Part shown: one piece after another, positions 4,413 to 54,299 of the stretch
How positions within the stretch are numbered: position 1 is the first letter of the stretch
How the letters are laid out: every line of letters begins with the position of its first letter
Sequence record: MN148435
Source of the DNA: Shigella phage SGF2
DNA: 64,000 nucleotides
Direction: 5' to 3' (one strand)
Notes under the pieces: generated by a model
The model's input: the letters and a program-made list of their open reading frames with translations, nothing else
Told to the model about the DNA's origin: nothing
Databases searched by the model: none
Made by a program: the position numbers and the translations under genes

Positions 4413-4904
4413 ATGGATAACGCCGCATTGCCACCTGTACAACTAAACTTAAGCCCAGCTGGAATGGAATTCATCATGAAGCACGAGGGTATGAGAACCA
4501 AGGCTTATAAAGATTCCGCAGGTATCTGGACTATATGTGTAGGGGCTACGCGCGATATGAATGGTTATCCGGTTAGACAAGGATTAACGTATTCTATAGA
4601 GGATTGTCTAGCTCTGCTAGATAGAGACACACAAGACTCTGTTCGTGCTACTCAGAAGAACATAAAGATTCCTTTGCTAGTTCATGAGTTTGATGCACTC
4701 ACTTCTTTCAACTTCAACGTTGGCAGTGGGGCTTTGAGCACATCTAAGTTAAGGAAGGTTATCAATGGAGAAGTGAAAGGGGATGTTTATTCCGAATTTC
4801 TTCGTTGGGATAAAATAACGGTCAGGGGAGAAAAGCAGAGAAGTCAGGGTCTTCATAACAGAAGGGTTGCAGAAGCTGATCTTTACACTGAAGGTAAATA
4901 TTAA
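4413..4904 (+). CDS. endolysin, T4/lambda-type lysozyme (GH24)
   Basis: RBS AAAGGAGG; EG...KAYKDSAGIWTICVGATRD... catalytic-region pattern of GH24 lysozymes; 163 aa. Confidence 0.85.
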   Translation: MDNAALPPVQLNLSPAGMEFIMKHEGMRTKAYKDSAGIWTICVGATRDMNGYPVRQGLTYSIEDCLALLDRDTQDSVRATQKNIKIPLLVHEFDALTSFNFNVGSGALSTSKLRKVINGEVKGDVYSEFLRWDKITVRGEKQRSQGLHNRRVAEADLYTEGKY

Positions 4905-9760: not shown

Positions 9761-10792
9761 ATGGCATATGGAATATGGACACAACCAGTAGGGCCGGGGC
9801 CAGCAACCCCCGCTCCCTTGTTTATTGATAGCGGAAGTACTTTCCCTCAGTTCAAGAACAGTATAAGAGGGAGCTTTAACTTTAATGGAGCTGGGAGATC
9901 TTTCCCTATTAGTGGATGGGATGGTAGTGGTCAGATAGTTATTGTTCCCACTGGTTCTCTGTGCTGGCAATGGGAAGTCCCTCCTAACTTAGTCCCTGAT
10001 GTTTATTGTGTAAATAACATCTATGTAGAAAATGCCTCATCTTTTAGGGTTACTCTGAACCAGAATCCCGGCGGCAATCCTTTATTTGACTGTGGATTCA
10101 ACGTCTACCAGATTTGGCCTAGAGCTGATAGAAACTATGGGATAACTTTCTCAAATACAGCAGACTACTTTTCCATATCAGATGCTGGGGTTGTTGGTCA
10201 ATGCATTTGGGCTTGGCAGGGGGTCATAAACAATGCCCTTCAGATACCAAATATCGGTGGGTTCAATATGACCAATGCTGTTGTATTTGCTAATTGGTCT
10301 GATGGAGGACTCGGGCTGTCTTATACCTCTGATGACAGAGTTATTCGTGTCTACCAGAACAGACCTTACGTAAACGGCAACACTAATGAGGGTGGTTCTG
10401 TGTTTGCTAGAATTGCAGTATTCTGCAATGGGGCAGGTGTTCCGGAACATAATGGAGGTTTAAATATCTACTCTCCGGGAACCACTCAATGTGTATTTTC
10501 TACTAACAGAACACCTTTCACTGTGGATACTTTTATAGGCTCAGGAGGTGGTAACACTGGAATGGCGTACCCTATGATACCTCTTACTTCTGGAATAGGT
10601 GCAATAAAAGGCCAAGGTAGTGGGTGGAGATACCAGCAAATGAGATCTCACACAATGAGTGGCTCTAGTATAGGAACTGGTTATGGAAGGTACTTATTTC
10701 AGTGGAATCAAAATTACGATCTAGGGGCTGACACTGTTGTTAACTTATCAGTTCCTGTAATAAACGCAGCTAAGGTTTTTGCTGGACTATAA
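9761..10792 (+). CDS. virion protein, function unknown
   Basis: 343-aa ORF tightly packed in late operon; Gly/Asn-rich. Confidence 0.35.
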   Translation: MAYGIWTQPVGPGPATPAPLFIDSGSTFPQFKNSIRGSFNFNGAGRSFPISGWDGSGQIVIVPTGSLCWQWEVPPNLVPDVYCVNNIYVENASSFRVTLNQNPGGNPLFDCGFNVYQIWPRADRNYGITFSNTADYFSISDAGVVGQCIWAWQGVINNALQIPNIGGFNMTNAVVFANWSDGGLGLSYTSDDRVIRVYQNRPYVNGNTNEGGSVFARIAVFCNGAGVPEHNGGLNIYSPGTTQCVFSTNRTPFTVDTFIGSGGGNTGMAYPMIPLTSGIGAIKGQGSGWRYQQMRSHTMSGSSIGTGYGRYLFQWNQNYDLGADTVVNLSVPVINAAKVFAGL

Positions 10793-10804: not shown

Positions 10805-11587
10805 ATGGCAATTAAAATGGGTATTGAAGAACTAGACCCAATGGTGCAACAGGCTTCAAAGAAGTATGGAATACCAGCTGCTTTGATTCATGCTGTAATC
10901 CAAAGAGAGTCTAGTGGACGTCCTAAAGTAGCCTCTGGAACTGGTCCTGTAGGTTTAATGCAGATCAGTAAAGGATTGGCTAAAGACTATGGATACAAAC
11001 TAGAAGATAGACTGGACCCAGCAAAGAATATTGACATGGGTGCTCGTTATATCAGAGATAACTTAAAAGCTTTTAATGGTGATGTTAAGAAAGCGATGGT
11101 TGGTTACTCTGAAGGGACAGGGGGTGCTAGGCAGATGTTTGCTGGTAAGAAAGGGTTTACTCCTCAGGCGCTTGACTCAATGAACAACAAACATTTTCTC
11201 CCTTTCTATGGTGATGCTGCTTCTCAGATTGCTAACCCTGTTGGAGCTTTGCAAGCTGTTCAACCAGTTAACCAATTTAGTCCGGATACCCTTGATAGGG
11301 AGAAGGCTGCTCAAGCTCCGACTCAGGCAGAAATTGCTGCTTCTAAGACTGGTGCTTTAGGTGGCAATCCAGTAGAGTTTTACTCTGATGAAGTTCAGGA
11401 AGGTGAGGACCAGAAGCCTCAACAGAACTTTGGTAATGCAGTATTAGGGGTAGCTGCTATGCTTGCTGGTAAACCTCCTACTTCTCAAACAGTTCAGAGA
11501 GTGAGTACACCTCATGCAGCAGGTTCTCAGTACAGTCCACAAACACAAGCAGTGCTTAGACGTTTGGCTAGCATTGGTGTTAAGTAA
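10805..11587 (+). CDS. virion-associated lytic transglycosylase (SLT domain)
   Basis: motifs IHAVIQRESSGRP...GLMQIS characteristic of SLT/GH23 catalytic region; RBS AAGGAG. Confidence 0.75.
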   Translation: MAIKMGIEELDPMVQQASKKYGIPAALIHAVIQRESSGRPKVASGTGPVGLMQISKGLAKDYGYKLEDRLDPAKNIDMGARYIRDNLKAFNGDVKKAMVGYSEGTGGARQMFAGKKGFTPQALDSMNNKHFLPFYGDAASQIANPVGALQAVQPVNQFSPDTLDREKAAQAPTQAEIAASKTGALGGNPVEFYSDEVQEGEDQKPQQNFGNAVLGVAAMLAGKPPTSQTVQRVSTPHAAGSQYSPQTQAVLRRLASIGVK

Positions 11588-11606
11588 TAATCGTTAAGGA
11601 GGACTT

Positions 11607-12659
11607 ATGTCTTTATTTGGAAAATCAGCTTCTAGCAAAACCACAGTGGCTCCTTCCTCTCAGGTTGATGCCCTGCTGAAGCAGATTGTTGCTAATGCTC
11701 AGAATATGCAGAACAACGATCAGGGATTTATTTCCCAACAGCTGGCTGGGTTTAACGGCAACCAACAAGGTGCTCTGAATAACTTAGCAGCTTCTACTAC
11801 TCAAAAGCAATTGGCTAATATGTACACACCTCGTACACAGCAAGGTTTGGACCAACTGAACTCCCTTGCTCAACAGTATCAGAATATTGTTAATGGTGGT
11901 GGTTTAACTGCTGATGGTGTTAACAACTTCAGTAAAGGGTTAAACAACTCGGCTCTTGCTCAGGCTACTAGTAAGGCAGCTTCTAATGTATCTCTTGGAA
12001 ATGGTTCTGATTCAGGTTCCCTCCGTAGAGCTGCTGCTCAAGGTGCTGCTCTGAATGGCGCTAATACAAATCTATCTCGTACCATCAACGGTAAGAACAT
12101 GGGAATCAGTGCTCTTCAACAAGACCAGAACTTCCAGAGAGGTTTGCTTGGTGCTCAGTCTGGTTTAGCTGGACAGAACCTCAACCTTGGTGCACAAGGT
12201 GTTCAGGCAACTCAGCAAGCTATCCAGAATCAACTCATGGCTGGTAATCTACAACAGCAACAAGCTCAAGCTCAAGCAGATATCAATTGGCAGAATGCTA
12301 TTGGCTCTCAGCAGTATGGATGGAATCAGCTTAACAACCAGCTTAATGTATTAAACAGTGTAAGCCCTATGGCTGGATACACGATTAAGAATGCTGCTCC
12401 GGGAGTTAATACTGGACAACAGCTCCTAGGTGCTGGTATCACTGGCTTGGGTATTGCAGGTCGTATGGGTGCTTTCTCTCCTAACCAACAGACTCAGAAT
12501 GCTTGGAGTTCCTATAACAACTCAGGTGGGCAGTCTGGTATGGCTGGTCCTATGATTGGAGGTTCTAATCTTTCTCAACAGAAAGGTCAGTCTAACTGGT
12601 TATCCACAACGGGTAATAATATCTTAGGCGGTGTCTTAGGGGCATTCGGAGCAAACTAA
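11607..12659 (+). CDS. Q/N/G-rich low-complexity virion protein
   Basis: 350 aa, starts MSLFGK; paralogous to next gene. Confidence 0.4.
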   Translation: MSLFGKSASSKTTVAPSSQVDALLKQIVANAQNMQNNDQGFISQQLAGFNGNQQGALNNLAASTTQKQLANMYTPRTQQGLDQLNSLAQQYQNIVNGGGLTADGVNNFSKGLNNSALAQATSKAASNVSLGNGSDSGSLRRAAAQGAALNGANTNLSRTINGKNMGISALQQDQNFQRGLLGAQSGLAGQNLNLGAQGVQATQQAIQNQLMAGNLQQQQAQAQADINWQNAIGSQQYGWNQLNNQLNVLNSVSPMAGYTIKNAAPGVNTGQQLLGAGITGLGIAGRMGAFSPNQQTQNAWSSYNNSGGQSGMAGPMIGGSNLSQQKGQSNWLSTTGNNILGGVLGAFGAN

Positions 12660-12671
12660 AGGAGATTTGAT

Positions 12672-13640
12672 ATGGCTTTATTTGGAGGAGGGAATAGTAA
12701 AACTACTTCCCAAATGATTCGCCCTGAATACATTCAACAGTATATTGACCAGCTTAACCAACAGATTGGTAATACTAGTTCAGGGGATTATGTTTATCGT
12801 GACAATGTAGGGTTTAATAACAACCAGACAGAAGCTCTTAACAACTTGGCACAGTCTGGTGCTCTAGGGACTCTCTCGCAGCAATACATGGATGCAGCAG
12901 GTCAAGGGTTAGGTTATCTGGATAATGCCTATAAAGGCTACCAGAGCCTCTCTGGACAAGGTGGTATTACTGGAGAACAGATTGGTGCTCTCGCTGGTCA
13001 GCTGTATGATGACGATGTTGTGCAAGCAGCCATTACAGCTAATAATGAACAAGTTCAACAGAACCTAGCACGTAATGCTTTGCCTCAGTTAGCTCAACAG
13101 TATGCTGGTCAACAGGGTTCAGGTGCTCGTATGGCTAAGTCCTTTGCCCAAGGTGATGCTCTGAATCAGATGCAAGGCCAAGCAACAGATATTACCAATA
13201 GCGCCTATAACTCAGCTATTAGTCAAGCTGAAAGCATCCTATCTGGTAACAGACAGAATCAGGCAGCTGCTCTCTCAGGTCTTTCTACTATCGGTTCTAA
13301 CCTTTCTAACTTAGGTCAGCAAGGTGCTAATTTGTCTCAGCAGCAAATAATGAATCAATGGAATGCAGGGTTGCAGCAACAACAGCAACAACAGAATGAA
13401 TATGATAATGCCTACCAGAATGCTCAGAACGCAGCTAATTGGGGATGGCAAGATATCAACAACCAACTCGGTGCAGCAGGTGTACTTAACGGCGCTCTCG
13501 GACAAACTACAACTACTAAAACATCTGGTGGCAAAGGTGGTTTCCTTGGTGGAGCTATGAGTGGTGCAGCAGCAGGTTCTTCCTTTGGGCCTTGGGGTGC
13601 ATTGGCTGGAGGTGTAATCGGTGGGTTGGCTAGTACTTAA
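12672..13640 (+). CDS. Q/N/G-rich low-complexity virion protein (paralogue of 11607-12659)
   Basis: 322 aa, starts MALFGG; shared N-terminal pattern and QQQQ runs; RBS AAGGAG. Confidence 0.4.
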   Translation: MALFGGGNSKTTSQMIRPEYIQQYIDQLNQQIGNTSSGDYVYRDNVGFNNNQTEALNNLAQSGALGTLSQQYMDAAGQGLGYLDNAYKGYQSLSGQGGITGEQIGALAGQLYDDDVVQAAITANNEQVQQNLARNALPQLAQQYAGQQGSGARMAKSFAQGDALNQMQGQATDITNSAYNSAISQAESILSGNRQNQAAALSGLSTIGSNLSNLGQQGANLSQQQIMNQWNAGLQQQQQQQNEYDNAYQNAQNAANWGWQDINNQLGAAGVLNGALGQTTTTKTSGGKGGFLGGAMSGAAAGSSFGPWGALAGGVIGGLAST

Positions 13641-13653
13641 TTAGGAGACAAAT

Positions 13654-15309
13654 ATGCAACAGACAACTTACGCTCAGGTCAGAAGTCGTGATCCGAGAAA
13701 TACTTTTTATGGTGTTAATCCGGGAGCGGCTTCGGCCTCTCCTTATATGGCTAGACCTACTCAGACAGCTGATGTTTCTATGTACCAACGTCCTGCTGTA
13801 CCTTCATCTCTCGCAGGTCTTGTCTCTCAGGCAGAAGAAGATCAGAATGCTATGGTGAATCCGGGATTCCAGCAACGTCTTATGGAACAACAGAATCAAG
13901 GAACTCCAACAAGCCTTCAGGGTATTAATATTGGAGAGCCAGCTCCTGTAGCAGCTAATCCTAATTTATCCACTGATCAAGGTTTGCAGGATGCTGGACT
14001 TATGCCTAGTGACCCTCTTCCGGTAACACCTCCTACTAAACCACTAGAAGCTGGTCCTATGGAGTTTACTCCTTCTCAGGTGGAACAGGCACAAGGTGTG
14101 ATTAACACTCTTGCTCAAGGACAAGACACCGGTGACGGAATGACTGCTGCTACTCGCACTAAAGATCAAGAGCGTGTTAACAATGATATCATGCAGGTTG
14201 CTAAAGCTAAAGACCCTTCAGAAGCTTGGAATAAACTACAGAAAGAACCTTTCTATCAGAACTCCAGTTTCTATACAGGTTTGATGGGTGTAGGTCTTTC
14301 TATCATGTCAGGTAAGTCTCCTATCGAAGCGTTTCAGATTGGTCAGGGAATGGCTAATCAAGATGAGACTAAGAAGCAACTGGAAGCTAACCGTGATGCA
14401 TTAGTTGAACAGGGTTTCTCTCAAGACTCTATTGCTGCTGCTATTGCAAGTGGTGATCCTTCTCTTCTGAAGATGAGAGCTAAAAATCCTCTTCAACAGG
14501 AAGCTCTGTATGCTGCTCGTGAAGAACGTCAGAATGCTGAGTGGGATAGACGTCAACAGATTCAAGAGCAGTCTATGCGTGAACGTGCTGAGGAAACTCG
14601 TCGTGCTGCTGAAAAGAGAACTGACATGAACTTTGAACGTCAGAAAGAGTTGATTGGCTATCGTGATAAGGTTAAGGCTGAACGTGCTGAACAAGCTGCT
14701 CAGAGTTTTAACTTTAACCCGAAAGAAGTTCGTCTTGCTCAGAACACAGCTGAAGGTACAGTTGCTAAGCAGTGGGCGGAGAAAGGTGGTCTGTTTAACC
14801 AGTCCAACAAAGACTTGGATTTGGCTGACAAAGCAGTTAAAGATAAAGACTACCAGACAGCTCGTTCTGCTTACATGCAGGCTATCATGAACTCCGCAAG
14901 GGCTGAAATCGGTGCTACCCGTTCTCTTACTGAAGAAGACTTGGGACACTTCGCAGAAGACCCATCAATCTTCGTTCGTGTTGGCAACAAGTTTGCACTG
15001 AAATCTGGATGGCGTCCTACTGATGCTGCTCTTTCTTATGCTCGTAAGCAGGCTAATGTTGGTCACACCTCTGCAATGAAGGGTGTTGCTGATGCTAAGA
15101 AGGCTACTATCGAAGCATACATCGGTTCTGGTATGGATAAGAAGAGAGCTACTGCATTGGTTAACCGTGCAATCCCTTCTGGTGGTTTCTATGACCCTCT
15201 AGGTGTTTTCTCTGAACAAGCAGAAGAAGCAGTTGGTGGTGCAGCAACCAATCCTAAGCTTAATGGTGCTTTATCAGCTGTCGAAGACACTAGCTGGTTT
15301 ACTCAATAA
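13654..15309 (+). CDS. internal virion protein, function unknown
   Basis: 551 aa; RBS AGGAGA; coiled-coil C-terminal half. Confidence 0.4.
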   Translation: MQQTTYAQVRSRDPRNTFYGVNPGAASASPYMARPTQTADVSMYQRPAVPSSLAGLVSQAEEDQNAMVNPGFQQRLMEQQNQGTPTSLQGINIGEPAPVAANPNLSTDQGLQDAGLMPSDPLPVTPPTKPLEAGPMEFTPSQVEQAQGVINTLAQGQDTGDGMTAATRTKDQERVNNDIMQVAKAKDPSEAWNKLQKEPFYQNSSFYTGLMGVGLSIMSGKSPIEAFQIGQGMANQDETKKQLEANRDALVEQGFSQDSIAAAIASGDPSLLKMRAKNPLQQEALYAAREERQNAEWDRRQQIQEQSMRERAEETRRAAEKRTDMNFERQKELIGYRDKVKAERAEQAAQSFNFNPKEVRLAQNTAEGTVAKQWAEKGGLFNQSNKDLDLADKAVKDKDYQTARSAYMQAIMNSARAEIGATRSLTEEDLGHFAEDPSIFVRVGNKFALKSGWRPTDAALSYARKQANVGHTSAMKGVADAKKATIEAYIGSGMDKKRATALVNRAIPSGGFYDPLGVFSEQAEEAVGGAATNPKLNGALSAVEDTSWFTQ

Positions 15310-15376
15310 GACCTAAGTCCTGCCTTCTATAATGTATATAGGGGGTAGGACATTTTTATTTATAAAAGGAGACGTT

Positions 15377-18300
15377 ATGGCTAACATTAAACCGTGGGAA
15401 GAAGCTTCCAAAGCTCCTGCGTATCTGAATGCCTCTCCGGAGCAACAAGCTCAAATGAGAGAACAATATAAGGCAGCAGGTGGCTCTATTCCTGAGGAAC
15501 AACCAGTAGCACAACCACAACAAGAAGAACGTGGTGCTATAGGTGAGTTTGCTCAAGGTGTGTCAAATGCTCTTCAATCTGGTGGTGCAAATATTGCAGC
15601 TAGTGCTGCTAAAGGTATTGGTGGTTTAGTTGAGATTGGTGAGAATCTAGCTGGAGCACAAACTAGTTATGGTAAGCGTATACAAGAGAACTCTCAGAAC
15701 CTTCTGAAAGAACGTATGGATAAGATTGAGGATGGGATTGGTAAAACTGTCGGTCAGTATGCTGGTGTTGCTGGTGATATCGGTTTGACAGTTGCTAACC
15801 CATTGGCTGCTGCTGCTATCATCGCAGGTCGTGAGACAGGTCGTGCATATGCAGACCAAACCCCTGAAGAGGGAGAAGATAAGTCTATTCTAGATGCAGC
15901 CTTAGTTGGTGGTGCTAACTATGCGGCTCAGAGAATCCTTCCGGGTGCTGTCGGTACAGCTGAATCCACACTTGGACGTATTGGTCAGAACGTTGCTAGT
16001 AACGCAGTGGCTGGTGCTAAAGGTGGTGCTCTTGTGGGTGCTGCTGAAGCTCAGAATAAGCACGGAGATGACACAACCTTTGCTAATGTATTAGAAGGTG
16101 CTATCGAAGAAGGTGCTATGGGTGCTGCATTTGGTGGTGCAGTTGGTGGGGTTCATGGTTTGATTAGCCGTCCGGGTTCTGCTGTCTTCAAGAATACTCC
16201 AGAGTATGCGAAGACTGATATTGCTGCTGATGATGAACTAATTCGTAGTGCTAAGAACATTGATGAACTGAAAGAAGCTTACTCTAAAGCTGAAACTGCT
16301 AACGCTGCTTCTGCTCTGAATCTTCTGGATGAGAATGGATTCCGTATTACAGATGCTGTTGCTGTGGATTCTCCTGCCGCTCAGCGTATTCTTAATACAG
16401 ACCAAGCCCGTGCTGAGAAAGCTGCTTCTGTTCAGAAAGAACATTCTAACATTCCGGGCCTTAACCCTTTGGCTTCTCCTGCTAAAGTTCGTGGTAAAGC
16501 ATTCGCTGATAATGAGCACAACCAGAAGCAAGCTGTCGCTATGAAAGACGCAATGGCTGATTACACAAAGGATAACACTAAAGCTCTTACAGATGTTCTG
16601 GATAATCTTGATCGTGAGTTAGTCTCTCTCCGAGCTTCTGGTGACTTTACTGGCAGTCCGATTGATATTAAGAATCGCACACAAGCTGACCGTGATTTCA
16701 TTGATGCTTACAAGACTTTCTATAATGAAGCAAATCGATTCAAAGCTCGTGATGGTGAAGACTTTAACAACTTCGTAGAGAAAGCTACTGAACTACAGAA
16801 GATGGCTGATAATGTTTCTCCAGAGATGAAACAAGCTATTGGTGGGTTGAAGAAACTGAAAGGTATGCCTGAAGGTTTTAATCCTATTCAAGATGCTTAT
16901 ACTCTGAACAATACAGCTAAGTTCATGAGCAACCAAGACCGTGGTTGGACTTCCCTGACTGATGATGGCTTCCGTGAGGCTTCTTCTCCTAGTCTGGTTA
17001 TGAATACACTTGGTGCTGCTAAGTATGCTCTGAATCGCTTCTCTTCTCAGCGTGCTCGCTCTCAACGTGTTAAACAACAAGAATCCAACAGTGAAGCTAT
17101 CCGCTCTCTAGCTCGTGGTGATTTGGAAGTTGCTCGTGCTAAATCTACTGCTGATGAAGCTCGTGCTAAAATGGAAGAAGAACCAGTTGTTGATGACATT
17201 AAATTTAAGACGCAAAATGACGTGGAAACCGAACCGGTTCGGGAGCCTTCTTCTAGTACTGTGACGGAAGAAAATCTTCCTTCTTCTGCTCCTCAAGAAA
17301 CTCCTCTTACAGCTCGAGATTTAGTTGCGCAAAGACGCGCTATCCGTCAGGCTGAACAGCGTCGCGCTGAAGAAGAGGCATTGGCTGCTCAAGAAGCTCC
17401 GGTCGAACAAACTCCACAGGCTGAACCTCTCCCTGCTCGTAACCCTCTAGAGGAGCGTCGTGCAATGGAACAGCAACGTGCTCAAGAAGAGGCCGCACAG
17501 GCTCCAGAACCAACCGTAGAGGAACCAACAGTCAAAGCTGAGCCATTACCTGCCCGTGCTCCTAAAGCTCCTAAGGAAGCTGTACAGGACGTTAAACCGG
17601 CAAGTGGTGTAGAACGTTTAGCTGCTATGTCCAGTGCTGCTCGTCAGGCTACTAAAGATCGTGCAGAACGTTTTGCTCGTTCTCTGTATTCCAAGGCTGC
17701 TAAGGCTAAAGCTACTGCTGAAAACTTCTTGGCTTACAAGGGTGATCCTAAAGAGTTGATGCGTCGTATTCGTCAGGAAGATAATGCTATCAACACTGAA
17801 CGTCATGAAGAGATGGCTCGTAATCAGCTAGCTTCTCAGCAAGGTATTGCTACTGCTAAGAACAACACTGTACGAACTAATTTTGCTGAATGGGTTAAGG
17901 AACGTGGTCTGCCAGAAGACATTGCTACTAAGGCATTACGTGCTGAAGAAAAAGGTTTAGGTGGGAACGTTACTAACTTGGATAGTCTGAAACGTCGTGC
18001 TGAAAGATTGTATCAGAAGCAGCGTGAGGATGAGTTTGATAGGTTGTATCAACAAGCTCTAGAAGAGAACAAAGCTTTCGATAAGAAGGATGCTCCTAAA
18101 CTGGTTGACCAGAAGAAAGAGCTTCAGTCTGAGATTGATACTTTGATTGATTCAGAACCTTTACGTCCTGCTCAGAAAGATGCTATGCGTAAGCTGATGA
18201 ATGATTATGTAGATGGGAAGTTTAAATCTTCAGAGAAGGCTGGTAGGGAAGAGGCTTTGGAAGTGGGTCAGATGAAGGATATTTGGGATGGGTTTATTAA

Positions 18301-19798
18301 CACCTATAACAGAGAAGTGAATGCCTTCAACAAAGCTAACAAGAACTCTCAATACGAAGCTGCTGCTAAACACTTGCAGGCTCGTGAAGAACGTCTTGCT
18401 ACTCTGAGAAATAAAGCTCAGGCTCGTTCAGATGCTAAGGCTGCTGTTGAGAATGAACGTAAAACTCTAGAGGCTATTGCAGCTCAGAAGAGTGAGATTG
18501 AGAAGATGATGGAAGGCTTACCTAAGTCTGTTCGTGAAGCTCAGGAATCTCGTACATTGAAACAGTTGGCTGCTCACCATGATAAGAACTCTCCAGTTCC
18601 TCCAGAGAAGTTCCGTAGCTATATCGAACGTATCCATAACGCCGAGTCAGATTACCTTGATCGTCAGCGTCGTTTAACTGATGCAGAGGAAGATGCTCGT
18701 CAGGCTAAATGGAACAGGATGTATGAGCAAGCGGAAGAGATGGACCGTAAGTTTGATATAGACAAAAAGGTTAAGCGTAGTGAAGCGCTTAAAGAGGCCC
18801 AAAAGCGTGAGAATGACCTTATGGCAGTACAACGTCAACGTGACGACATTCATCGTCGACTGATGCACACTTTGGAAGATAAGGGCATATCTAGAGAGGA
18901 TGCTGAAGCATTTGCTGGTTCCTACATGGATAACCGTTATGCACTTCTTGATAAGCCTATGACTCCTACTGAACATCAGAATGCTCGTTCTCGTATTGAG
19001 GCTGATGTTGAGAAGTTTGCTAAGAAGTACGAATCAATGACTCCTATCGAGAAAGAGATTGTTAAGGTTACTGGAGATACTGAAGGTAAGCTTGATAACT
19101 TGGATGCGGATACTAGGAAGGCTGTTGAGGAGGCTCAGAAGGTTGACTCTGATATTAAGAAACTGCAAGAGGAAGAGTTGGAGATGGAGAAGGTTCGTTC
19201 TGCTCTGCCTGACGATGAAAGATCTCAAGCAAGTTCTGATATCTTGGAAAGTATCAAACAGCAGGAAGAAGCCTTTGCTGATAAAGCAGAGAAAGCTTTC
19301 TTGAATGGGAAGAGCTTGGATGAGTTAGCTAGTGTGGCTGAAGTTTTAGACAGGGTTCATGGTGCAGATAAGGCTGGTAACAACCGTCGCTTTGTACGTG
19401 CATTGCAGACTGCTGCTGAAAACAAGAAGAAGTATGGTGATAATCCGGTAGCTTGGTTTAGTGCTGATGATTATTCTGCCATTGCTAAACTTGGTGCTTC
19501 TTCCGCAGGTGGTAACAAATCCAGAGCACTGGAGAAGATCTTTGGTTCTACAGCTGAACAAGCTAAGAGTAAGTTGCTTGGCAGGGATGATGTAGCGAAG
19601 ATGAGACGTGTAATTGAAGAGAACCCTGATATTAAGATTCCTTCTTACAAGACAACGAATCGTACTGAGTACTTGCAGTTCTTGGAGAAGTTTAATGACG
19701 AAGGGAAGCCGAAGATTAAACGTGGCTCATTGTCAGAGAAGCTTGAACGCAGTAAGCGTCAATCGAGACTCCGTGTAAGAGTTCGACCTAAGGAGTGA
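15377..19798 (+). CDS. large coiled-coil-rich internal virion/ejection protein (tape-measure-like)
   Basis: ATG at 15377 preceded by AAGGAG (track ORF starts 15332); ~1473 aa; Gly/Ala-rich hydrophobic N-terminal segments then highly charged helical repeats. Confidence 0.5.
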   Translation: MANIKPWEEASKAPAYLNASPEQQAQMREQYKAAGGSIPEEQPVAQPQQEERGAIGEFAQGVSNALQSGGANIAASAAKGIGGLVEIGENLAGAQTSYGKRIQENSQNLLKERMDKIEDGIGKTVGQYAGVAGDIGLTVANPLAAAAIIAGRETGRAYADQTPEEGEDKSILDAALVGGANYAAQRILPGAVGTAESTLGRIGQNVASNAVAGAKGGALVGAAEAQNKHGDDTTFANVLEGAIEEGAMGAAFGGAVGGVHGLISRPGSAVFKNTPEYAKTDIAADDELIRSAKNIDELKEAYSKAETANAASALNLLDENGFRITDAVAVDSPAAQRILNTDQARAEKAASVQKEHSNIPGLNPLASPAKVRGKAFADNEHNQKQAVAMKDAMADYTKDNTKALTDVLDNLDRELVSLRASGDFTGSPIDIKNRTQADRDFIDAYKTFYNEANRFKARDGEDFNNFVEKATELQKMADNVSPEMKQAIGGLKKLKGMPEGFNPIQDAYTLNNTAKFMSNQDRGWTSLTDDGFREASSPSLVMNTLGAAKYALNRFSSQRARSQRVKQQESNSEAIRSLARGDLEVARAKSTADEARAKMEEEPVVDDIKFKTQNDVETEPVREPSSSTVTEENLPSSAPQETPLTARDLVAQRRAIRQAEQRRAEEEALAAQEAPVEQTPQAEPLPARNPLEERRAMEQQRAQEEAAQAPEPTVEEPTVKAEPLPARAPKAPKEAVQDVKPASGVERLAAMSSAARQATKDRAERFARSLYSKAAKAKATAENFLAYKGDPKELMRRIRQEDNAINTERHEEMARNQLASQQGIATAKNNTVRTNFAEWVKERGLPEDIATKALRAEEKGLGGNVTNLDSLKRRAERLYQKQREDEFDRLYQQALEENKAFDKKDAPKLVDQKKELQSEIDTLIDSEPLRPAQKDAMRKLMNDYVDGKFKSSEKAGREEALEVGQMKDIWDGFINTYNREVNAFNKANKNSQYEAAAKHLQAREERLATLRNKAQARSDAKAAVENERKTLEAIAAQKSEIEKMMEGLPKSVREAQESRTLKQLAAHHDKNSPVPPEKFRSYIERIHNAESDYLDRQRRLTDAEEDARQAKWNRMYEQAEEMDRKFDIDKKVKRSEALKEAQKRENDLMAVQRQRDDIHRRLMHTLEDKGISREDAEAFAGSYMDNRYALLDKPMTPTEHQNARSRIEADVEKFAKKYESMTPIEKEIVKVTGDTEGKLDNLDADTRKAVEEAQKVDSDIKKLQEEELEMEKVRSALPDDERSQASSDILESIKQQEEAFADKAEKAFLNGKSLDELASVAEVLDRVHGADKAGNNRRFVRALQTAAENKKKYGDNPVAWFSADDYSAIAKLGASSAGGNKSRALEKIFGSTAEQAKSKLLGRDDVAKMRRVIEENPDIKIPSYKTTNRTEYLQFLEKFNDEGKPKIKRGSLSEKLERSKRQSRLRVRVRPKE

Positions 19799-30921: not shown

Positions 30922-31413
30922 TTAAAGCTCCTTTAAAGCATGGAGTATAGCTGTATGGCTCACGCCAAACAACTTACCAAGACCTCTAGAGCCAAAATCC
31001 CTAGAACCCTTCACATACATCTGTTTAATCTTTACAACATCTCCAGAGGATAATTTGGTCATTCCGTTATTGTCACGAGTATGCCCTTTATTCAACCCTG
31101 TATCAAAGGAATGTTGTATGTTTTCAGAAGCGGATACCCATTCAAGATTCTCCAGTCGATTATCGTCTTTTATCCCATTGATGTGGTTGACTTCTGGATA
31201 ATTGTTAGGGTTTGGTATAAAGTGCGTAGCTATAAGTCGGTGCGCTCTCCATCGTCTTCCTTGGAAATACACACCGATATAGCCTTTCGATATCATACAT
31301 CCAGCTATCTTTCCGGGGTGGCTTTTGTTCCACATCACTCCTTTGCTAGGAGATTTTGTGTAATATAGGTTACCTGTGACCGCATCGTAAGATAAGGTGT
31401 CATCAAGAACCAC
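30922..31413 (-). CDS. HNH homing endonuclease
   Basis: YPEVNHINGIKDDNRLENLEWVSASENIQH = HNH_3-type motif preceded by NUMOD-like region. Confidence 0.8.
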   Translation of the reverse strand: MVLDDTLSYDAVTGNLYYTKSPSKGVMWNKSHPGKIAGCMISKGYIGVYFQGRRWRAHRLIATHFIPNPNNYPEVNHINGIKDDNRLENLEWVSASENIQHSFDTGLNKGHTRDNNGMTKLSSGDVVKIKQMYVKGSRDFGSRGLGKLFGVSHTAILHALKEL

Positions 31414-31720
31414 TCAACGCCCCCTTCCTAGCTCCGTTTGCTTTTCCAGCTCGATCACCACTTTTGCCGCCGTTTGAACGGTTTGAGCTGACTGATTCAA
31501 CACGTAAGTTGCTTGACGCATTAGAGCCTCCAGACTTGACAGCTCGTTTGTGTCCAACATCTTTACCTCTGACAGCAGCTTTTCCATCGCGCTTTTCAAC
31601 GATGCGACGTGCACGGTGGCGCTGAGCATCTCCGCTCTTGCTCCCAATGCCTGTCTCACCACGGGCAATTGCGGTACGTCTTTCTTGTGCATAATCTCTC
31701 TTTCCTACATGATCTGCCAT
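31403..31720 (-). CDS. basic Gly/Lys/Arg-rich low-complexity protein
   Basis: strong RBS AAGGAG 7 nt before ATG at 31720; 105 aa. Confidence 0.4.
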   Translation of the reverse strand: MADHVGKRDYAQERRTAIARGETGIGSKSGDAQRHRARRIVEKRDGKAAVRGKDVGHKRAVKSGGSNASSNLRVESVSSNRSNGGKSGDRAGKANGARKGALSGS

Positions 31721-54223: not shown

Positions 54224-54299
54224 TGGTGCACCCTACAGGACTCGAACCTGTAACCAACGACTTAGAAGGTCGCTGCTCTGTCCATTGAGCTAAGGGTGC
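54224..54299 (-). tRNA. tRNA-Arg (anticodon UCU), CCA encoded
   Basis: minus-strand GCACCCTTAGCTCAATGGACAGAGCAGCGACCTTCTAAGTCGTTGGTTACAGGTTCGAGTCCTGTAGGGTGCACCA folds as cloverleaf: 7-bp acceptor, D-arm GCTC/GAGC, anticodon loop CTTCTAA, T-loop TTCGAGT. Confidence 0.85.

Follow-up and report, generated by a model that had tools for sequence, protein, structure and literature searches.

What are the products of two neighbouring genes dominated by glutamine, asparagine, glycine and alanine, and what could such a composition mean in a phage particle? The question is raised by a locus of Shigella phage SGF2 (record MN148435), of which we analysed one stretch of 64,000 nucleotides, referred to here as the window. 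A preliminary description had pointed to the two adjacent genes, here A and B, to their MSLFGK and MALFGG starts and to their poly-Q runs, and the ORFs, the composition and the runs were all verified (Table 1). It had also considered the products to be prion-like low-complexity proteins, unusual in a virion operon, and possibly ejection or internal proteins that need flexibility or phase behaviour; these further suggestions fared unequally.

Table 1. Positions in the window of genes A and B, of segments within them and of the other genes of the cassette.
Feature	Position	Strand	Remarks
Lytic transglycosylase (SLT), SU10 gp20 ortholog	10805..11587	+	Pfam SLT E 1.7e-24; first cassette gene
gp21-like ejection protein, paralog A	11607..12659	+	350 aa; MSLFGKSASS... 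start; SD site; phrog_4287
Most Q/N-rich 80 residues of A	12117..12356	+	residues 171-250; 35 Q/N
QQQQAQAQA of A	12252..12278	+	residues 216-224
First hydrophobic Gly/Ala segment of A	12420..12476	+	residues 272-290, QLLGAGITGLGIAGRMGAF; conserved in the A family
Q/N/S/G tail of A, length-variable	12477..12617	+	residues 291-337; gap-filled in the A-family alignment; predicted coil
Terminal hydrophobic segment of A	12618..12656	+	residues 338-350, NILGGVLGAFGAN; conserved in closer A-family members
gp22-like ejection protein, paralog B	12672..13640	+	322 aa; MALFGGGNSK... start; SD site; phrog_4287
Most Q/N-rich 80 residues of B	13254..13493	+	residues 195-274; 33 Q/N
QQQQQQQ of B	13374..13394	+	residues 235-241
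C-terminal glycine-zipper segment of B	13527..13637	+	residues 286-322, GGKGGFLGGAMSGAAAGSSFGPWGALAGGVIGGLAST; putative two-helix membrane hairpin, P-W turn
Ejection protein of 551 aa, in synteny with SU10 gp23	13654..15309	+	phrog_12130; periplasmic-tunnel size
Ejection protein of ~1473 aa, in synteny with SU10 gp24	15377..19798	+	phrog_14629; inner-membrane-complex size

Two ejection genes of a Kuravirus

In a megablast search the window is 93-94% identical to about 77 kuraviruses, and its DNA can be assigned by sequence to Kuravirus, i.e. to the phiEco32/SU10-like coliphages. Protein A is 96-98% identical to SU10 gp21 and 172-1 gp039, and protein B is 97-98% identical to SU10 gp22 and 172-1 gp040; compared with SU10, the lengths are equal, the substitutions are few and nothing material differs. 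Both proteins are matched at full length by the phrog_4287 'DNA ejection protein' profile (E 2.7e-117 for A and 1.4e-108 for B), and their phiEco32 and 172-1 counterparts, also of phrog_4287, are annotated as 'DNA injection/ejection proteins'. A Pfam search with A and B found nothing, and a sequence search of the PDB gave no meaningful match, the sole one, to 2pu3 endonuclease I (E 0.53), being taken as chance.

Virion proteomics, proposed as a check in the preliminary description, has been published for the SU10 orthologs, and both gp21 and gp22 were found in purified virions by LC-MS/MS, with coverage of 53% and 49% (PMC4281155). SU10 gp20-24 are missing from genome-release intermediates, and it is because of this absence that gp21 and gp22 were named ejection proteins; the SU10 maps contain no ordered density assignable to either of them (PMC9509320). 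The earlier suggestion of 'ejection or internal proteins' is thus borne out by orthologs, 96-98% identical, that are present in virions and lost on genome release. The identity of A and B as ejection proteins is already known, and the channel mechanism proposed below is what we infer. Both proteins are ordinary for Kuravirus-type phages; the phrog_4287 family comprises 536 clusters at 50% identity and is conserved throughout the prolate (C3) podophage group and further, which speaks against their being unusual in a virion operon.

A and B are evidently paralogs of one another, with 32% identity across 275 aa (E 8e-13), and carry opposite net charges, +8 in A and -8 in B, the family means being +4.8 and -6.9, respectively. 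Strong Shine-Dalgarno sequences (AAGGAGG and AAGGAGA, spacing 6-8 nt) precede both genes, and the gaps between the genes around them are 12-19 nt. They belong to a five-gene cassette, of which the first product has been described in SU10, as gp20, as an SLT-type ejection protein (PMC9509320). The 551-aa product encoded after B parallels in size Pa223 gp54 (505 aa), and in the last gene an SD site before the ATG at 15377 gives 1473 aa, as reported for SU10 gp24. The order of tail needle, gp19, SLT, gp21, gp22, ~550-aa and ~1470-aa proteins is the same in the window, in SU10 and in 172-1, and a cassette of SLT, A, B, ~500-aa and ~1100-1500-aa proteins is kept in L006, a relative at just 43% identity.

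Amino acid bias and positional conservation

The composition of A and B was compared with that of the 64 other ORFs of the same window. Q+N amounts to 27.7% in A and 25.2% in B versus a mean of 9.2% (sd 2.7, maximum 16.8), i.e. to z-scores of +6.8 and +5.8; Q, N, G, A and S together make up 63% and 61% versus 29% in the other ORFs, and the charged residues (D+E+K+R) 6.3% and 8.7% versus 24.6% (z = -4.0 and -3.4). Entropy in 40-residue windows is lower in A and B than in any other ORF, and entropy of the whole protein is 3.61 bits in A and 3.68 in B, the sole lower value (3.54) belonging to an ORF of 105 aa at 31403-31720. Both proteins also pass a crude criterion for a Q/N-rich domain, at least 30 Q/N per 80 residues; the stretch concerned in A includes, besides QQQQAQAQA, a conserved NWQN...GWNQLNNQLN motif.

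The bias is distributed along positionally conserved sequence and has no repeat-like character. Both poly-Q runs are short, at 4 and 7 residues, with mixed CAA and CAG codons, and their length is not conserved, varying from 2 to 8 Q across homologs; replication-slippage repeats were rejected as a source of the bias, because Tandem Repeats Finder reported merely two tiny arrays, of 17 and 21 nt. Position-specific conservation in the two families persists to 37-40% identity, with 37 invariant columns among 36 B-family sequences and 26 among 32 A-family sequences, and in the B family the best-conserved block comprises the Gly/Ala residues 286-322. Unlike yeast-prion domains, A and B have plentiful Leu, Ile and Ala at regular spacing. 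A hydrophobic periodicity of 3.45-3.75 residues was found in three segments, where 0, 3 and 4 of 500 shuffles reached it; in the most Q/N-rich stretch of B, residues 195-274, the helical periodicity is 3.6 residues, equalled by 3 of 500 shuffles.

AlphaFold2 models, built on alignments of 32-36 sequences, show long helices in both proteins, with coil at the C-terminus, and are of low confidence (pLDDT 39 for A and 48 for B, and below 50 across most of both); residues 137-252 of A are predicted as a single long helix with a block-mean pLDDT of about 40-63. Such low values would fit disorder or, equally, an obligate oligomer. Judged from the alignments, residues 291-337 of A are the sole stretch of either protein that behaves as true low-complexity sequence, and the idea that this tail might be a degenerate S74 domain drew no support from Pfam, where even a cutoff of E 10 gave no match. 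The hydrophobic segment in front of the tail, residues 272-290, holds the peak 19-residue Kyte-Doolittle window of A (1.16). By eye, this segment resembles the stretch that comes right before the S74 cleavage site in the relatives P0158 and P0118.

Taken together, positional conservation, helical periodicity, the predicted helices and a conserved glycine-zipper C-terminus leave the label 'prion-like low-complexity' unsupported. A need of flexibility is plausible for any protein threading the tail channel, and none of the results speaks for phase behaviour.

The C-terminus and relatives in other phages

In situ cryo-EM of P22 presents a gp7 dodecamer as the channel from the hub to the outer membrane, with a V-shaped C-terminal two-helix hairpin within the membrane and Q/N-mediated hydrogen bonds in the gp7-gp20 contacts (preprint 10.64898/2026.09.03.749273). 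A C-terminal motif of glycine-zipper type, GGxSGAxAG...PWGAxxGGxIG, is common to P22 gp7 and the B family, the hairpin being putative in B, and the same Pfam glycine-zipper 2TM families are matched, below threshold, by the glycine-zipper segment of B and by the gp7 C-terminus. Against the B-family C-terminal HMM the gp7 C-terminus scores 22 bits, a score that 7 of 2000 composition-preserving shuffles reach, and the C-terminus of LUZ24 gp53 does no better than shuffles (113 of 2000). Profile-profile comparison with the gp7 family gave local matches for the B family (probability 65%, E 6e-5, 53 columns in the N-terminal third) and for the broader family (probability 75%, E 2.4e-5), and none for the A-family profile. 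The composition of gp7 is similar to that of A and B (Q+N 18%, G 14%, charged 10.5%), and its gene likewise lies shortly downstream of the tail-needle gene. Homology to gp7 is nevertheless unproven, because there is no match to Pfam P22_gp7 (PF25688), either for A and B at E 0.1 or for their C-termini at E 10 (as a control, the P22 gp7 C-terminus alone scores 54 bits), and no full-length similarity, the full-length family HMMs giving a negative score against gp7. The P22 protein also differs in being single-copy and of 229 aa, compared with two paralogs of 350 and 322 aa, and in that 20 residues are removed from its N-terminus by host OpdA, according to a note in the sequence record.

Clear homologs occur at the same genomic position in Grimontviridae, namely Salmonella phage 7-11 gp20 and Cronobacter phage A24 gp089 (phrog_4287 E 2e-136; 124-151 bits with the A5 HMM). 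These are single-copy proteins with a C-terminal autocleaving S74 chaperone domain, unlike A and B, which are two copies in which Pfam finds no Peptidase_S74. The domain scores 20.5-22.2 bits in the two Grimontviridae proteins and 33-45 bits in the relatives P0158, P0165 and P0213; in 7-11 gp20 and A24 gp089 it has an S-D-x-x-x-K dyad (Ser/Lys spacing after PMC3742443), and the C-terminus of B coincides with their predicted autocleavage point. S74 is carried by 9 of 57 family members and by 8 of 32 of the long relatives, and in some relatives it directly follows the glycine-zipper segment and is at times fused to a cell-wall hydrolase. In distant relatives the ejection domain is the N-terminal part of proteins of 700-1600 aa that also bear a cell-wall hydrolase, and one such protein is encoded in a podovirus tail/ejection module; in some relatives the same region has weak matches to 'tail fiber' PHROGs. 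The presence of S74, a folding-dependent chaperone/protease, would imply a defined oligomeric fold in these relatives. In the literature searched we found no description of an S74-driven, trimerisation-gated maturation of ejection proteins.

A remote link can also be suggested between the phrog_4287 family and the Bruynoghevirus protein Pa223 gp56 / LUZ24 gp53 (phrog_7477), a virion protein of 313 aa, near to A and B in size, which has the same position in a cassette of parallel gene order and sizes, and a hydrophobic C-terminus, rich in Gly, where membrane helices are predicted; its Q/N content is lower (16%) and its charge higher than in A and B. LUZ24 gp53 matches phrog_4287 (E 2e-10), 7-11 gp20 matches phrog_7477 (E 2e-4), and LUZ24 gp53 scores 19.5 bits against the B-family HMM; A and B themselves gave no match to phrog_7477 at E 0.01, and hhalign of the combined Kuravirus-family profile with the lone LUZ24 gp53 sequence gave a probability of 2.5%. 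A T7-gp14-like role of Pa223 gp56 in an outer-membrane channel is a proposal from bioinformatics and AlphaFold3. With full-length HMMs, T7 gp13/14/15, P22 gp14/7/20/16, LUZ24 gp51 and phiX174 H received negative scores or scores in which the bias correction dominated.

The last of these, phiX174 H, resembles A and B in composition, with a Gly-rich hydrophobic end and Q/N-rich helices; there is no sequence relation, and its hydrophobic end is N-terminal, unlike the C-terminal one of A and B. phiX174 is a ssDNA virus, and its H pilot protein is a functional analogy as a DNA conduit; its tube structure was reportedly described by Sun and colleagues in 2014. No sequence similarity to T7 gp14 was found either (-3.9 to -10.4 bits with the HMMs), and that protein is unlike A and B in having 196 aa, 20% charged residues and no Q/N richness. 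What we propose as shared is the functional class of T7 gp14, that of small, first-ejected, membrane-inserting internal proteins that form the outer-membrane pore (PMC8954989).

A candidate role in the DNA channel

In our reading, gp21 and gp22 are paralogous, mainly alpha-helical, Q/N-rich and nearly uncharged ejection (pilot) proteins, packed within the prolate head and expelled via the tail nozzle after the tail needle departs; that they are part of the virion and are released with the genome was shown for the SU10 orthologs. Once ejected, they may oligomerise into the tail-proximal part of a trans-envelope DNA channel, possibly as a hetero-oligomer of basic gp21 and acidic gp22, and the conserved C-terminal glycine-zipper hairpin would anchor them in the outer membrane, as in P22 gp7. 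In this scheme the task of the SLT protein gp20 would be to cut peptidoglycan, and that of gp23 and gp24 to form the periplasmic and inner-membrane parts of the channel. The richness in Q and N would then provide networks of side-chain hydrogen bonds between helices or subunits and a surface of low charge, and no prion or condensate property. We consider this explanation as a whole rather probable; the outer-membrane site, as opposed to the periplasm or the inner membrane, would follow from analogy to the systems compared above. The trimeric assembly step implied by S74 in the relatives is not obviously compatible with a ring of 12 or 9 subunits.

A bolder version, which we put forward tentatively and hold unlikely in its full form, would derive gp21 and gp22 from a P22-gp7-like outer-membrane protein. 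The ancestral type of precursor would have had an ejection domain, a Gly-zipper, S74 and sometimes a cell-wall hydrolase, and would be self-cleaving in many podophages; in the Kuravirus line S74 would have been dispensed with and the gene duplicated, giving a basic/acidic ring, e.g. 6+6, whose alternating subunits would match the six-fold nozzle. The two genes might thus have fixed what P22 achieves with the gp7-o and gp7-i conformers of one protein.

The same data may be read in other ways. If A and B were prion-like, disordered internal proteins of low complexity, acting by flexibility or phase separation, e.g. as a condensate or lubricant in the capsid, one would expect the Q+N content of 25-28%, the passing of the threshold of at least 30 Q/N per 80 residues, the very low charge, the pLDDT below 50 for the larger part of each protein, the lack of ordered density in the SU10 map and the truly variable Q/N/S/G tail of A (residues 291-337). 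Such proteins would, however, hardly be conserved position by position down to 37-40% identity, with helical amphipathic periodicity exceeding that of shuffles and a regular Leu/Ile/Ala spacing unlike that of yeast-prion domains; moreover, Q-run length is unconserved, conservation is highest in the hydrophobic Gly-zipper and not in the Q/N part, and the folding-dependent S74 of the relatives points to a defined oligomeric fold, so that we regard this reading as quite improbable. Trimeric, fibre-like external structural proteins are suggested by the S74 domain, of tail-fibre type, found in 9 of 57 family members as well as in 8 of 32 of the long relatives, and by the weak 'tail fiber' PHROG matches; yet the SU10 tail is fully built from gp11-gp18, without gp21 and gp22 (PMC9509320), which exit the particle together with the DNA, and A and B have no S74, which leaves a fibre role with hardly any probability.

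A closer competitor would keep A and B as ejection proteins and place them elsewhere than at the outer-membrane end, i.e. as lining of a periplasmic tube, as an inner-membrane pore or as a plug or chaperone of gp23/gp24. Presence in the virion and release are equally compatible with such sites, helices as long as those predicted, about 70-115 residues, could reach 10-17 nm, phiX174 H, too, has Q/N-rich helices together with a hydrophobic end rich in Gly, and two paralogs could occupy two separate sites. We find this placement unlikely, if less so than the two preceding readings: no sequence relation to phiX174 H, T7 gp15 or P22 gp20 is detectable, the tunnel and inner-membrane classes are already matched in size by gp23 (551 aa) and gp24 (1473 aa), and the likeness in motif and synteny is specific to the outer-membrane class, to P22 gp7 and Pa223 gp56.

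The clues to a channel, namely the gp7-like hairpin, the link to Pa223 gp56, the relatives with S74 and hydrolase domains and the opposite charges of the paralogs, when assembled, lead to a concrete and testable assignment of gp21 and gp22 as the part of the channel proximal to the outer membrane. Kuraviruses feature in phage-therapy collections, and knowledge of their entry machinery would be of some practical value.

The gene pair and its SU10 counterparts

Two adjacent open reading frames, termed here A and B (see the table), have the lengths of gp21 and gp22 of the coliphage SU10, and are 96-98% identical to the SU10 and 172-1 orthologs. By megablast, region 11000-14500 matched 79 phage records, 77 of which span it with identity up to 94%; the genus Kuravirus, with Escherichia phages such as phiEco32, SU10, 172-1 and NJ01, accounts for nearly all of the matches. 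The profile phrog_4287 "DNA ejection protein" covers each protein from end to end (E 1e-117 for A, 1e-108 for B); neither has a Pfam family, nor a match in the PDB sequence search. Strong Shine-Dalgarno sequences precede both genes, and the intergenic gaps are tight (12-19 nt).

In SU10 virions gp21 (35.9 kDa, 53% coverage, 11 peptides) and gp22 (33.3 kDa, 49% coverage, 5 peptides) were found by LC-MS/MS (PMC4281155). The cryo-EM study lists gp20-24 among the structural proteins, uses SDS-PAGE and MS to show that intermediates of genome release are devoid of gp20-24 and of the needle gp18, and concludes that gp20-24 are five ejection proteins, of which gp20 is the transglycosylase; none of the five could be assigned to density (PMC9509320). 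A and B are thus almost certainly ejection proteins, and their virion-internal, ejection-released status is established on ortholog evidence. The guess of the preliminary description that they are ejection or internal proteins was correct, and the virion proteomics which it proposed as a check, absence from virions being the refuting outcome, had been answered by the published SU10 data. The feature itself is already known, as SU10 gp21/gp22 and as DNA ejection or injection proteins in the annotation of many records, and the pair is typical for its phage group, not unusual in a virion operon as had been thought.

Several neighbouring genes deserve a remark. For the ORF at 15332-19798, the ATG at 15377, preceded by AAGGAGA, is the likelier start, because the resulting 1473 aa equal the length reported for SU10 gp24. 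SU10 gp19, the counterpart of the DUF6453 protein gene, is listed as undetected in virions, and this gene is therefore a non-structural one amid the structural operon. If the ORF at 4413-4904 is the lysin, lysis genes would sit inside the tail module, judging from synteny with SU10 and the 172-1 annotation.

Features of the window and of relatives' loci
Feature	Location	Strand	Description
A	11607-12659	+	350-aa ORF, gp21-like; with B, spans exactly the interval of the preliminary description
B	12672-13640	+	322-aa ORF, gp22-like; with A, spans exactly the interval of the preliminary description
gp24-like ORF	15332-19798	+	1488 aa as listed mechanically
DUF6453 protein	9761-10792	+	343 aa; phrog_1265 "membrane protein"; between tail-needle gene and ejection cassette
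Putative lysin	4413-4904	+	163-aa ORF between tail genes; size and position as SU10 gp15 lysin, beside holin
Basic protein	31403-31720	-	105-aa ORF; early/middle region
tRNA-Arg	54224-54299	-	single tRNA-Arg gene; anticodon TCT
P0165	L010 9834-13295		1153 aa; metagenome assembly GCA_050655915.1; gp21/22-like module, Peptidase_S74 300-350, Hydrolase_2 cell-wall hydrolase 536-654, long C-terminal region
Salmonella phage 7-11 gp20	L003 8986-10224		412 aa; single-copy gp21/22 homolog, same genomic position; Grimontviridae
Cronobacter phage A24 gp089	L004 8974-10206		410 aa; single-copy gp21/22 homolog, same genomic position; Grimontviridae

Composition and structure

Among the 66 ORFs of the window A and B are the strongest compositional outliers: Q+N reaches 27.7% and 25.2% (other 64 ORFs: mean 9.2%, sd 2.7, maximum 16.8; z +6.8 and +5.8), Q+N+G+A+S 63% and 61% (mean 29%; z +5.4 and +5.1), and D+E+K+R 6.3% and 8.7% (mean 24.6%; z -4.0 and -3.4). 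QQQQAQAQA occupies residues 216-224 of A and QQQQQQQ residues 235-241 of B, both runs in mixed CAA/CAG codons; both proteins pass a crude threshold of 30 or more Q/N per 80 residues, and Tandem Repeats Finder returned two arrays only, of 17 and 21 nt. The earlier picture of an adjacent Q/N/G-rich pair with poly-Q runs was accurate. No protein in the window has a lower whole-protein entropy than the very basic, G/S/R/K/A-rich one (…KSGGSNASSNLRVESVSSNRSNGGKSGDRAGKANGARKG…) at 31403-31720, with 3.54 bits.

The two proteins are paralogous: with statistics adjusted for composition, they align over 275 residues at 32% identity and E 8e-13. In homolog searches, which gave 48 and 52 clusters at identity down to about 35-40%, Q+N of 21-29% is conserved throughout, but the longest run of Q is anything from 2 to 8 residues. 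The alignments contain 26 invariant positions in the A family and 37 in the B family, with the motifs AG(F/L)NxxQxxAL, GSxxR, NWQN...GWxQ(L/I)NNQLN and an N-terminal MxLFGG. When hydropathy is averaged by column, a period of 3.45-3.75 residues dominates; it was rarely equalled by composition-preserving shuffles (0/500 for B 18-95, 3/500 for B 195-270, 4/500 for A 17-100) and was not significant in two other segments. The best-conserved block overall is the Gly/Ala hydrophobic C-terminal segment of B, LGGAMSGAAAGSAFGPWGALAGGVIGG, from which sub-threshold matches to glycine-zipper 2TM families were obtained.

These properties bear on the earlier proposal of prion-like low complexity, with a disordered or condensate-based role. 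AlphaFold2 gave long helices and, after them, a C-terminal coil, at low confidence (pLDDT 39 and 48); such helices are weak evidence, and the low pLDDT is compatible with monomer disorder and with a prion-like role. However, the invariant positions, the helical periodicity, the variability of Q runs and the conserved membrane-type terminus speak against this role, and we disfavour it; only the length-variable Q/N/S/G tail of A (291-337) acts as true low-complexity sequence. We conclude that the Q/N-rich composition is a genuine trait of the family, kept by selection, and that A and B are structured proteins of amphipathic helices, with a terminus of membrane type, rather than prion-like domains.

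Likeness to P22 gp7 and a possible channel role

A similarly unusual composition is found in P22 gp7 (Pfam PF25688; Q+N 18%, G 14%, charged 10.5%), which in situ assembles as a dodecameric channel that starts at the tail hub and enters the outer membrane, with a membrane-embedded V-shaped C-terminal two-helix hairpin, two alternating conformers and Asn/Gln hydrogen bonds joining it to gp20 (10.64898/2026.09.03.749273). The B-family C-terminal HMM can be aligned with the end of gp7, IGGGASGAIAGAGLAKLIGSSTPWGAAIGGGIGLLGS, at a score that only 7/2000 composition-preserving shuffles reach (20/2000 for the bona fide relative 7-11 gp20); the N-terminal thirds gave profile-profile E of 6e-5 and 2.4e-5, with probability 65-75%. 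From the sequence comparisons homology to gp7 seems plausible but unproven, because A and B do not match PF25688, the bias-corrected scores of gp7 with full-length HMMs are negative, and the A family has no profile match to it. HMM comparisons detected no relation of A/B to T7 gp14/15, P22 gp20/16 or phiX174 H.

A preprint on the Bruynoghevirus Pa223 (10.1101/2025.06.11.659172) proposes that gp56 (313 aa, C-terminal membrane helices) forms an outer-membrane channel like that of T7 gp14; the next two proteins are a tunnel protein of 505 aa and an inner-membrane protein of 1055 aa. Kuraviruses have a parallel gene order: needle, transglycosylase, gp21 (350) and gp22 (322), gp23 (551), gp24 (1473 aa). 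LUZ24 gp53, the ortholog of gp56, matches phrog_4287 (E 2e-10) and scores 19.5 bits with the B-family HMM, and its family is matched by 7-11 gp20 (E 2e-4).

It would be logical to suggest that after needle release gp21 and gp22 exit via the nozzle and refold as a helical oligomer, which may extend the nozzle as far as the outer membrane and across it, with the glycine-zipper hairpin as an anchor; gp20 would cut peptidoglycan, and gp23 and gp24 would complete the periplasmic and inner-membrane parts. Through networks of hydrogen bonds, the near-uncharged Q/N-rich helices may hold to one another and join the subunits, in the manner of the gp7-gp20 contacts of P22. Net charge averages +4.8 (-1 to +11) in the gp21-like and -6.9 (-12 to -2) in the gp22-like family (+8 for A, -8 for B), and these opposite charges hint, speculatively, at a hetero-oligomer. 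We give the outer-membrane-proximal channel role somewhat better than an even chance; a place elsewhere in the ejectosome, as periplasmic lining or in the inner membrane, is a serious alternative, and a role as external fibre proteins is contradicted by the SU10 structure and release data.

Relatives carrying Peptidase_S74

A profile built from both paralog groups found 536 clusters at E <= 1e-3 among 1.84 billion cluster representatives. About one fifth of the best 150 are proteins of 650-1600 aa with the gp21/22-like module (~300 aa) at the N-terminus, and in three relatives (P0158, P0165, P0213) Pfam Peptidase_S74 follows the module directly (33-45 bits). This domain is the endosialidase intramolecular chaperone/autoprotease, with a Ser/Lys dyad spacing and trimerisation-dependent cleavage (PMC3742443), and it occurs in 8/32 long and 9/57 shorter relatives. 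The gene for P0165 lies downstream of two SU10-type adaptor genes, in a tail/ejection module of podovirus type, and its product resembles an "ejection polyprotein" that cleaves itself; peptidoglycan-hydrolase fusions of this kind lend independent, Rosetta-stone-type support to an envelope-penetration role.

In 7-11 gp20 and A24 gp089 the S74 matches (20.5 and 22.2 bits) are borderline to threshold, and the S-D-x-x-x-K motif is intact. The end of B (…GGLAST) aligns exactly with the predicted cut in these relatives (after …GWW, before SDASMK), and Kuravirus gp22 is therefore the counterpart of the N-terminal fragment that maturation of an S74-type precursor would yield. Net charge of 7-11 gp20 and A24 gp089 is +13 and +9 in the C-terminal S74-like domain, -4 and -5 in the mature part. 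The gp22 homolog P0042 (43% identity) appears under its name in NCBI assemblies of Enterobacter cloacae and E. mori, where the contig reportedly reaches 317 kb; the P0042 locus analysed (L006, Logan SRR24679947, 59.9 kb) is a Kuravirus-like phage contig having SU10-type capsid and portal genes with the same five-gene cassette.

To our knowledge, and as far as we have searched, the literature describes neither the S74-bearing and hydrolase-fused relatives, nor the match in position between the gp22 C-terminus and the S74 cleavage site, nor the motif-level link to the membrane hairpin of P22 gp7. Taken together, these three points give a testable model for that part of the SU10 infection machinery which cryo-EM left unresolved.
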